Origin: Mytilus edulis
Taxonomy: Eukaryota
Direction: 5' to 3'
Assembly: GCF_963676685.1 (NCBI RefSeq)
Contig: NC_092353.1
Span: 34,782,001 to 34,846,000, forward strand
DNA: 64,000 nt
The number at the start of each line of letters is the position of its first letter. The first letter of the stretch is position 1. Shown here one piece after another: positions 12,201-17,471 of the stretch. Both the position numbers and the translations under genes were made by a program. The notes below the pieces were generated by a model. It saw nothing but the letters and a program-made list of their open reading frames with translations, searched no databases and was not told the origin of the DNA.

Positions 12201-15200
12201 ACAATGTGAATTTTTAAAGCAATTGTATTTCACTTTTGGCTTATGAGCAGCTGCTCTCGCCGTATGGCCTTACCTTGTTCGCAATTTGGACCTTTGAATC
12301 CATCTCGACATACACAGATACGTGATGCACCATCTGGTAAACACGTTGCACCACGTGGACAGGGGTTCATTATACATGGATCTATGGTGTTTTCACAGTT
12401 GTTTCCTTTAACAAAAACGTCTCGTTAACATATGTTCAAACCAAATTATCATTTAACTAAATTATGCATATAATATTTAAAAAGATCATTTAATGCTGTA
12501 GTGAACAAAATCATGACTTGAAATTGTAGAAAAATATCAAGACGAGCAAACGATTATGATATATCAGTTAAGATCAACATGGTGTCTATTTGATCAAAGG
12601 TTTATTTCCTGATGCAAGTGAAGTGTTATTATGAAGAAGGAATCCGATATGTTGTAAAAGAGGGGCGAAATATACCAAAGGGACAGTCAAACTCATAAAT
12701 CTAAAATTAATTGACAACGCCATGGCTAAAAAGGAAAAAGACAAACAGACAAATAATAGTACACAAGACATAGAAAACTAAAAACTAAGCAACACGAACC
12801 CAACCAAAAACTGGGGGTGATATCAGGTGCTCTGGAAGGGTAAGCAGATCCTGCTATACATATGTGGCACACGAAGTATTGCTCATTTATCATAAACCCG
12901 GCAAATAGTCTAATTATACAGGTCAAATTCGTGAAAAGAAAAGGGGGTTGTAGTTACGACATAAGGAATAAATATTTGTAATAAATACAGTAAATAGTAA
13001 ATAATCCATTGCGAAAAAATGTTTTCAAACATTAATTGCATTAAAGTTAAAGTATTGAAAACAAAGTATACGGATGACGACGTAGATTAAAGAAGCAATG
13101 GTTTGGTATAGATGTGTTTGAAATGCATGCTTTGCAGATTGTTTGCATCGTCACGTTTGTGTCTATATATCAACTCAACATCGGTTTGCTTGTTTTAGGT
13201 ATTGTAGTATTTCTATAAGATACCGTTGCTGGTATTTATTACCGAAATTGTTTTAGCCTTTAAGATTAGGTATGTTTTATAAATTTTATTGTTTACTACT
13301 CATATGTTAGCAAAGATTGAAATATGCCGTCATCGGTAATATTTATTTTGAAGAGTTTGTAAAAAATGTGATAATATCACAAAATAATAATCATACCTGT
13401 GAATCCAAAATTACAAAGACATATATATCCTCCAGATGACACATCTTGACAGGTACCATTCGCACAAGGATTTGACATACAAGCCAGATCAGCTGGAGTA
13501 AAATCTACAATCGCAGTTGTGTCTTCTATGTGTTCTATGGGTTCTGGTGAAGTGGACGTTTCAAATGTAGTTTCTTCTACTGGTATTTCAGTGGAATTTG
13601 AAACAATTCCATCCAAATATGATTCTGCAATCTCTGAAGCCTCTGAACCGTCATCGGTAGAATCGATTGTGTCGTCCAATTGTTCCAACAGCTTTCTGCT
13701 CTTAACAGGTTCTTCTGCCATGTTAAAAATATTTGAAGCCGGATTGACCTTTCTTATTCCAATGACTGGTGGGTTATTTAAACTACTTCGATCATCATTC
13801 GTCACCTTCAAATTATTACTTGTTTCTTCTGGTTCGTTATTATCGTCTAAATAAAAGGATTCAGCTGTCATCTTGGTTTTCTTTTTAATTCTCAAATCAT
13901 TGTTTTCGAACAGAGATACCGTTGGAAACTTGATAAACGATTTTACAGGCTGTTCTATTTCTACAGCGTTTTCCTCTTTCGGGTCTTTGAAGAGATCGTC
14001 AGTTTTAACATTTTCCTCGCTGATCTCTTCATTAGAATTATCTACTTCATCGTATTCTTCATAGGTTTTCTGACTATCTTCTTCTTCTTCAGAGGTTTTC
14101 TGACTATCGTCTTCTTCTTCAGAGGTTTTCTGACTATCTTCTTCTTCAGAGGTTTTCTGACTATCGTCTTCTTCTTCAGAGGTTTTTTGACTATCTTCTT
14201 CTTCATAGGTTTTCTGACTATCTTCTTCCTCTTCAGAGGTTTTCTGACTATCGTCTTCTTCTTCAGAGGTTTTCTGAATATCGTCGACTTCTTCAAAGGT
14301 TTTCTGAATATCGTCTTCTTTTTCAGATGTTTCCTGACTATCTTCTTCTTCTTCATAGGTTTTCTGACTATCTTCTTCTTCAGAGGTTTTCTGACTATTC
14401 TCTTCTTCAGAAGTTTTCTGACTATCTCCTTCTTCTTCATAGGTTTTCTGACTATCTTCTTCCTCTTCAGAGGGTTTCTGACTATCGTCTTCTTCTTCAG
14501 AGGTTTTCTGAATATCGTCGTCTTCTTCAAAGATTTTCTGAATATTGTCTACTTTTTCAGATGTTTCCTGACTATCGTCGTCTTCTTCGCGATTTTCGAT
14601 AACATCTTTGTCGTCATTAGTTTGGCGTACGTGTTTAACAGACGTCTGTTCAACGGGATCATTAGATTTTATAGTTTCTTGGTTAATTTTCTTCTCTATT
14701 GGAAGTTTAAAGAAATCTTTAACGTAAAGACTATCACCTTTCGTGTCCTCTTCTGAGTTAACAGATAAATGGTTTGCTTTCTTGTCTGATTTCTCCTCGG
14801 ATGTATCCTTGATTTCACTATTTTTCAAACTTTTCTGTTTTACTTTCAAAACCTCTGTAGTTGTCTTACTCTGTTGTGTATCGTCCTGGTGCTCAGATGG
14901 GACTCTACTTTCAATGTTTTCATTAATAACCGTTTTATCATTCAAATGTTTAGATGAAATTTCTTCAACCATTATGACTTTTGTTGCATGTTTAGAGGGA
15001 TTAATGTCGATGTCATCTTGATCAATATCTTCCTCTGTTGGAGTTTTAGAAGGAGTATTAACTTCTGTATTCAATCGAATAACATGATCCCGAGTTTCAT
15101 CTTTAGCTGATTGTTTGACCTCTTTAATTTCTTCACTACTGCTTTCCTCTGTTTCGTCTTTAAGAGGATGATTTGAGTCGATATGTTTTTGACTGGTATT

Positions 15201-17471: not shown

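Follow-up and report, generated by a model that had tools for sequence, protein, structure and literature searches.

A tandem array of nine casein-like SSSEE repeats in Mytilus edulis belongs to a giant adhesion G-protein-coupled receptor (GPCR), not to a plain cadherin, and is a young feature whose copy number varies between mussels: nine units here, five or six and eight in other models, and none in M. californianus. The parallel with casein holds, as chemistry read from the sequence, within the M. edulis complex, but it is not conserved. Unless a genome coordinate is given, positions are those of the window, the whole 64,000-nucleotide stretch of DNA that we analysed.

A long acidic exon at the start of a receptor gene

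The array (array 1; reading-frame limits 16031–15114, minus strand) lies in an open frame of 1,368 codons (17483–13377, minus strand) that also encodes a predicted signal peptide, a second array and the start of an EGF/cadherin ectodomain. The features of the gene within the window are as follows.

13396..17543, minus strand: first coding exon, 4.1 kb, with start codon at 17471, signal peptide, acidic region and EGF-like domain 1 (open frame; splice ends from contigs)
17406..17471, minus strand: predicted signal peptide of 22 residues, conserved in M. californianus (hydropathy and alignment)
15111..16034, minus strand: array 1, nine units of 102 bp or 34 residues, each with ESSSEE (TRF and translation)
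14055..14588, minus strand: array 2, about 18 units of 9–10 residues of the type SQKT(S/Y/F)EEE (TRF and translation)
13686..13697, minus strand: R-x-L-L site, common to all Mytilus models examined (sequence pattern)
13397..13481, minus strand: EGF-like domain 1 (Pfam E 0.008, below cut-off here and above cut-off in the M. californianus orthologue)
12274..12406, minus strand: exon, EGF-like domain 2 (tblastn; 133 extra nucleotides in one spliced contig)
8774..9010, minus strand: exon, first cadherin-like unit, containing cysteine (contig and tblastn)
6600..6813, minus strand: exon, cadherin region (contig and tblastn)
6041..6169, minus strand: exon, cadherin region (tblastn limits)
5355..5540, minus strand: exon, cadherin region (contig and tblastn)
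2320..2475, minus strand: exon, cadherin region (tblastn limits)
1513..1804, minus strand: exon, cadherin region (contig and tblastn)
946..1140, minus strand: exon, cadherin region, limits approximate (tblastn)
118..219, minus strand: final exon inside the window (tblastn)

The acidic region is 1,308 residues long, contains no cysteine and carries a net charge of −187. Charge–hydropathy analysis predicts that this region and both arrays are disordered and that a cadherin control is ordered; AlphaFold run without an alignment returned coil (pLDDT 43, which is weak on its own). Array 2, which expanded in the same exon, is more acidic than array 1 (46% Asp plus Glu, with 12 S-x-E sites) and has a single-copy counterpart in M. 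californianus. Tyrosine replaces serine in four of its units, inside Glu/Asp runs, and tyrosine in such runs is a context for tyrosine sulfation. A genome search for the acidic region turned up neither another copy nor a gene that could have donated it, and protein searches returned matches to it from Mytilus only. No furin site (R-x-K/R-R) occurs in the first coding exon, where the sole K-R-K-R, at residue 460, is not kept in M. californianus. Site-1 protease might cut at the R-x-L-L site and so release the acidic region, a weak lead with about 1.2 such sites expected by chance (our estimate).

The remainder of the gene was traced using tblastn with the M. californianus protein XP_052089257.1 as query, which gave 60 minus-strand segments at ≥55% identity. 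With a paralogue hit and a local duplicate set aside, the 58 that remained were collinear and covered 2,921 of the 2,944 residues after position 1092 of the query. Beyond the window, 49 more collinear segments run from the cadherins to the tail that follows the seven-transmembrane (7TM) domain, ending at G000:C10:34,714,042; within the 80 kb read past the window, these later segments encode cadherins, FN3, SEA, Ig, HRM, GAIN/GPS, 7TM and tail. The gene thus continues for 68 kb past the window, and its product would be about 4,270 residues long.

Spliced contigs come from several studies. One, from a run guessed to be RNA, joins 14084–13396 to 9010–8774 and then to 6813–6600, while a 6,760-nt contig from the same guessed-RNA run spans 1804–1559 and then more than 6 kb onward; in two other runs, leaders of 110 and 302 nt are spliced on at 17543. 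No contig bridges array 1, with breaks at 15140 and 15972, and because the contigs all end at its edges the count of nine copies rests on the assembly. For the same reason, it is the continuous open frame in the genome, together with annotated models, that ties the signal peptide to the cadherins. Two raw, tissue-unlabelled RNA runs covered the first coding exon at depths of 0–0.42.

Several further features of the locus were recorded. A 19.6-kb intron (window 118 to G000:C10:34,762,477; L002, L003) splits the cadherin region, and several database models end or split near it, VDI25239.1 stopping at exon 118..219. Short local duplications of exon ends lie beside two real exons (window 9187–9010, minus strand, and L005:8352–8240), and an intron in the 7TM region holds a 388-codon open frame (L007:4229–3066, minus strand) that looks MULE-type transposase-like by eye. 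An ENPP-family gene of three exons (window 18863–21822, plus strand; Pfam Phosphodiest E 1.5e-66) lies 1.3 kb from the first coding exon on the opposite strand, and may be arranged head-to-head with the receptor gene or within its first intron; between the two sits a 53-bp tandem repeat of 11 copies (96% matches, window 18133–18718) with no long open frame.

A molluscan family of seven-pass receptors

The preliminary description had tethered the array to a cadherin ectodomain. Spliced cadherin exons do lie downstream, but the host is a seven-pass adhesion GPCR, in which the domain order is acidic region, two EGF, cadherins, FN3, SEA, two Ig, HRM, GAIN/GPS and 7TM. The proposed extracellular location of the array was borne out.

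Among 5,548 candidates, the single long relative found was XP_052089257.1 (P0001; 4,036 residues), in which Pfam 7tm_2, GPS, cadherin, Ig, SEA and EGF all score above their cut-offs; HRM falls just under its cut-off, and FN3 was scored on homologues. Its secretin-like 7TM domain (7tm_2 E 1e-53) is matched by exons at the locus at 56–100% identity. The GPS scores E 8e-11; GAIN is precomputed on this protein and was scored on homologues, and the locus encodes H-T-T. The cadherin match (E 8e-44) comprises five passing stretches in a region of 1,520 residues, and nine linker motifs were counted. Pfam gave no laminin-G hit in this protein or in homologues P0003, P0046, P0049 and P0050. The best PDB match is ADGRL3 (E 1.4e-88, profile positions 429–1029); an AlphaFold model of the part from FN3 to 7TM, built on a two-row alignment, reached a mean pLDDT of 37.

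The second and fourth GPS cysteines are replaced in P0001, P0047 and P0051, are likewise missing at the locus (L006:619–473, minus strand) and in the Mytilus paralogues examined, and are both kept in unionid homologues. One of the two GPS disulfides is lost; membership of the adhesion GPCRs does not need both, and the loss is relevant to cleavage. The Mytilus GPS retains the His, Thr, Phe and Gly named for cleavage in a passage of PMC13062082, which also notes that the H-X-S/T motif by itself is no guarantee of cleavage.

Sinanodonta, Potamilus, Mactra, Haliotis and Patella all have full-length homologues that share this core (names were known for 10 of 150 representative hits). As judged by sequence comparison, the family spans bivalves and gastropods and falls outside CELSR. 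In a quick IQ-TREE search on 37 GAIN–7TM rows, it was split from a four-member CELSR/Flamingo clade with SH-aLRT 100, and five proteins, four of them named Mytilus, formed one clade, which leaves the remaining bivalve proteins as no more than co-orthologues. Eight uncharacterised molluscan proteins belong to the same receptor family (XP_052089257.1, VDI25239.1, CAG2255061.1, KAL3883250.1, KAK3581721.1, KAL4232620.1, XP_046546561.1 and XP_055954631.1), with the acidic region in the Mytilus orthologues only.

Like latrophilin/ADGRL3, the mussel receptor has an HRM–GAIN–GPS–7tm_2 core with an intact H-X-T and a tethered-agonist-like segment; unlike it, XP_052089257.1 shows no lectin or olfactomedin domain in Pfam, and the mussel protein adds the acidic region, EGF, about 1,500 residues of cadherins, FN3, SEA and two Ig, and has lost one GPS disulfide in the Mytilus copies examined. 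CELSR/Flamingo (ADGRC) also combines cadherins, EGF, HRM, GAIN and 7TM in one chain (according to a passage of PMC13197933), but in the mussel receptor FN3, SEA and Ig stand in place of laminin-G, and identity across GAIN–7TM is about 24%. With no laminin-G hit and a GAIN–7TM part outside the CELSR clade, a CELSR identity was rejected.

Database names for the family include ‘uncharacterized’, ‘hypothetical’ and ‘Protocadherin Fat 4’. Fat protocadherins cross the membrane once and carry laminin-G and some 34 cadherin repeats. To call a seven-pass receptor Fat is wrong, and we rejected a plain cadherin or Fat identity on the seven passes, the lack of laminin-G and the cadherin region of only 1,520 residues. 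The best 15–20 matches in literature listings contained no description of this family, and a name search with six of its accessions or gene identifiers found none of them named in the papers searched; no match was made between the array 1 receptor gene and the ‘FAT4’ gene of a mussel byssus study (PMC12607631).

Tandem adhesion-GPCR paralogues flank the receptor gene on both sides. The upstream paralogue (window 41417–63797, minus strand, continuing to G000:C10:34,882,697) has exons 71–90% identical to M. californianus XP_052089256.1. The downstream paralogue (L009:3798–3, L013 and L014, minus strand) matches M. coruscus CAC5386745.1 and has exons for cadherin, SEA, Ig, GAIN and 7TM domains. 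Its candidate exon for a signal peptide is short, and the sequence ahead of its first cadherin exon showed no long acidic frame.

Duplication, turnover and possible constraint in array 1

Nine tandem SSSEE units at 34-residue spacing had been described from the sequence, and this count stands: TRF reports a period of 102 bp, 9.1 copies, 94% matches and no indels, and all nine units lie in one open frame, with SSSEE spaced exactly from nt 15959 to 15143. A non-coding or artefactual repeat was rejected. E-T-(E/D)-E-S-S-S-E-E recurs in 9/9 units, as do two His and 4–5 Lys/Arg; the spacers had been called Lys-rich, but with 8–10 Asp/Glu each the units are net acidic.

The claimed invariance of the motif, correct for all nine units, owes most to copying. 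Units differ from one another by 0–9 nt only, units 2, 3 and 4 equal units 5, 6 and 7 base for base (an exact higher-order duplication of 306 bp), and the three serine codons are identical throughout, without a silent change. Given this near-identity, SSSEE had a single origin and was then copied, rather than arising nine times; the invariance stems largely from recent duplication, and the units are very young. When array 1 was collapsed to one unit, one SSSEE arose by chance in 3.8% of 20,000 shuffles of the acidic region.

Copy number and content shift between close relatives. Models of M. galloprovincialis carry five and six units, all with SSSEE (both models come from one contig, so the shorter one could reflect a splice introduced by annotation), and the array in the window corresponds to the six-unit form plus the 306-bp duplication. 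An M. edulis model has eight units, with SSSEE in seven and RSSEE in one, and keeps both His in only three, so that the reported His pair is regular in the window but not conserved. In M. californianus, the orthologue XP_052089257.1 contains no SSSEE; the same place holds one segment resembling the 34-residue unit and then seven 19-residue units of the type KDETEE-S-R-S-(D/E)-E, or ESRS(D/E)E, that share a KDETEE-S-x-S core. At least two phosphoserines are predicted in five of these seven units, and three in none.

The expectation that orthologues would keep SSSEE failed outside the edulis complex. The motif is absent from M. californianus and from 5/5 full-length non-Mytilus homologues (none in P0001, P0003, P0004, P0046, P0049 or P0050), as well as from all 149 further hits, many of them fragments. 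In the five non-Mytilus homologues the N-terminus is short and the acidic region is missing. A genome pattern search found no closely spaced SSSEE pairs. An AGY-coded ESSSEE pattern gave 15 matches, nine of them in array 1; the other six lie elsewhere in the genome, and three of the five read are Lys-rich low-complexity frames.

Much of this could be explained by near-neutral minisatellite turnover, in which a tolerant coding exon rich in purines multiplies SSSEE through slippage and unequal crossing-over, the motif having no role of its own. The exact 306-bp duplication, the identical serine codons and the 49% A of the coding strand fit such a process, as do the range of five to nine copies among close relatives, the single base change that separates SSSEE from SRSEE (with S-to-R seen in one M. 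edulis unit), the low-complexity occurrences of ESSSEE elsewhere and the five other shelled molluscs whose homologues do without the acidic region. We nevertheless judge it unlikely, though a substantial contender. None of the 15 positions that vary among the nine units disrupts the frame, and there is no indel; an acidic region of 1,100–1,300 residues is kept in both Mytilus lineages, its parts outside the arrays about 50–75% identical between them; and the two lineages amplified the same acidic S-x-S-x-E core in different unit lengths, for which, as we infer, ancestral short direct repeats could have been the seed.

Substitutions also bear on neutrality. Among 14 distinct units (28 read) from the edulis complex, with 25 distinct substitutions, the ESSSEE core at positions 24–29 took one of 25 against 4.4 expected (P = 0.05, uncorrected), and the first ten residues took 12 of 25 against 7.4 expected (P = 0.04, uncorrected); hand-counted codon changes in core versus spacer gave a Fisher P of 0.053, also uncorrected. 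The prediction that SSSEE would persist while spacers diverge therefore finds some support inside the complex (P~0.05) but not beyond it, where SSSEE is missing. Given the less variable core, the exact triple-serine motif could matter within the edulis complex.

Fast concerted evolution of extracellular repeats is also known from proteins of gamete recognition, among them abalone VERL and sea-urchin REJ, and by analogy array 1 might tune how the receptor binds a partner specific to the species. The Mytilus lineages have units of different sequence and length, with divergence even between the models of M. edulis and M. galloprovincialis. The array also sits at the outermost part of a very long ectodomain, and narrow expression would agree with the weak or absent signal in two bulk RNA runs. 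Folded recognition repeats, however, are unlike these predicted-disordered units of low complexity, and the spliced contigs derive from several studies; we regard species recognition as very improbable.

Phosphorylation, mineral and the proposed role of the acidic tip

The serines of array 1 are likely to be phosphorylated. The FAM20C-type S-x-E/pS sites foreseen in the preliminary description number 27 by prediction in array 1, and 43 direct and 56 primed sites are predicted across the acidic region, whose charge would move from −187 to about −299 at full phosphorylation (56 sites). FAM20-family kinase genes occupy three loci in the genome (C9, C2 and C11). The C11 gene (L010; G000:C11:80,944,831) has its whole domain in one 503-codon frame and is possibly a retrocopy; the C9 and C2 copies are multi-exon. 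In a limpet shell proteome, about a third of phosphosites (16/46) match FAM20C motifs, and the authors call FAM20C specificity in invertebrates unknown (PMC4094399, in part).

A phosphate centre is defined in a passage of PMC4302223 as a short stretch holding at least three phosphoserines; all nine units reach three predicted phosphoserines within acidic sequence, so the proposed casein-type centre fits that definition, and the unfolded, flexible chain expected of one is predicted by charge–hydropathy. Array 1 resembles caseins, osteopontin and the SCPP family in being a predicted-disordered acidic secretory chain whose SSSEE clusters fit FAM20C specificity. It differs in having no homology to them, in being part of a seven-pass membrane receptor rather than an abundant soluble secreted protein, and in a motif limited to the M. 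edulis complex in a carbonate-shelled host. Casein homology was rejected on the receptor context and on the acidic region matching Mytilus sequences only.

True casein-like phosphate centres would bind or stabilise amorphous mineral and let the receptor, or a shed acidic fragment of it, anchor cells of the mantle or of muscle attachments to the mineral of the shell and report on it. Knock-down of fam20C in pearl oyster disturbs nacre (PMC5824888, in part), chiton shell proteomes contain cadherin-domain proteins (PMC13564323, in part), the ENPP-family gene lies close by on the opposite strand, and the R-x-L-L site could free the acidic region. Set against this are the loss of SSSEE outside the edulis complex, the poorly conserved His pairs and the near-zero RNA depth on the exon; sequestration, moreover, requires phosphopeptide in stoichiometric excess over mineral (a passage of PMC4302223), which is unlikely for a receptor. 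We consider this reading improbable. Mussel shell is, further, carbonate and not phosphate.

The explanation that we favour, at about even confidence, is that array 1 is a young, variable repeat in the acidic tip of the receptor, where FAM20C-type phosphorylation would make a calcium-binding polyanionic tether that activates the receptor. It starts from direct observations: gene structure, domain order, splicing of the acidic exon to EGF and cadherins, duplication history and absence of SSSEE from orthologues. A FAM20C-type kinase would phosphorylate acidic-region serines in the Golgi, and the region would then serve as a long polyanionic calcium-binding brush or spacer on the outer tip of the rod formed by the cadherins. 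Where Ca2+ bridged this tip to matrix, mucus, mineral or a neighbouring cell, the rod would come under load and pass force along its length, and a pull on a GPS cleaved at H-T/T would expose the tethered agonist and activate the receptor. Vertebrate adhesion GPCRs are established to signal, as a rule, through exposure of a tethered agonist, and the mussel receptor is likely to be mechanosensing. The selected property is probably acidic S-x-(S-x-)E charge density together with length, not the casein pentapeptide. Counting against this explanation are the less variable core, in which the exact triple-serine motif could matter; the missing GPS disulfide in Mytilus, with H-X-S/T alone being no guarantee of cleavage; and the modest share of limpet phosphosites that fit FAM20C motifs. 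A stronger version—a casein-like array grafted onto a cadherin-type adhesion GPCR to make a mechanoreceptor that would grip amorphous or shell mineral, turn mineral contact or load into G-protein signalling and have its grip tuned by a repeat number that differs among alleles and species—seems to us improbable.

Cadherin-bearing adhesion GPCRs are known mainly as CELSR/Flamingo. The mussel receptor represents a second, mollusc-wide design (cadherin–FN3–SEA–Ig–GAIN–7TM), one paralogue of which gained, in Mytilus, a polyanionic tip of 1,100–1,300 residues with fast-changing repeats; this receptor context is a more solid novelty than the casein parallel. Should array 1 prove neutral, it would warn clearly against taking identical tandem copies as evidence of selection. 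Should the tip instead carry phosphate and bind calcium or mineral, the receptor would become a candidate sensor by which mussel cells register their attachment to shell or matrix, and the natural range of alleles, from five to nine units, would offer a ready dose series.
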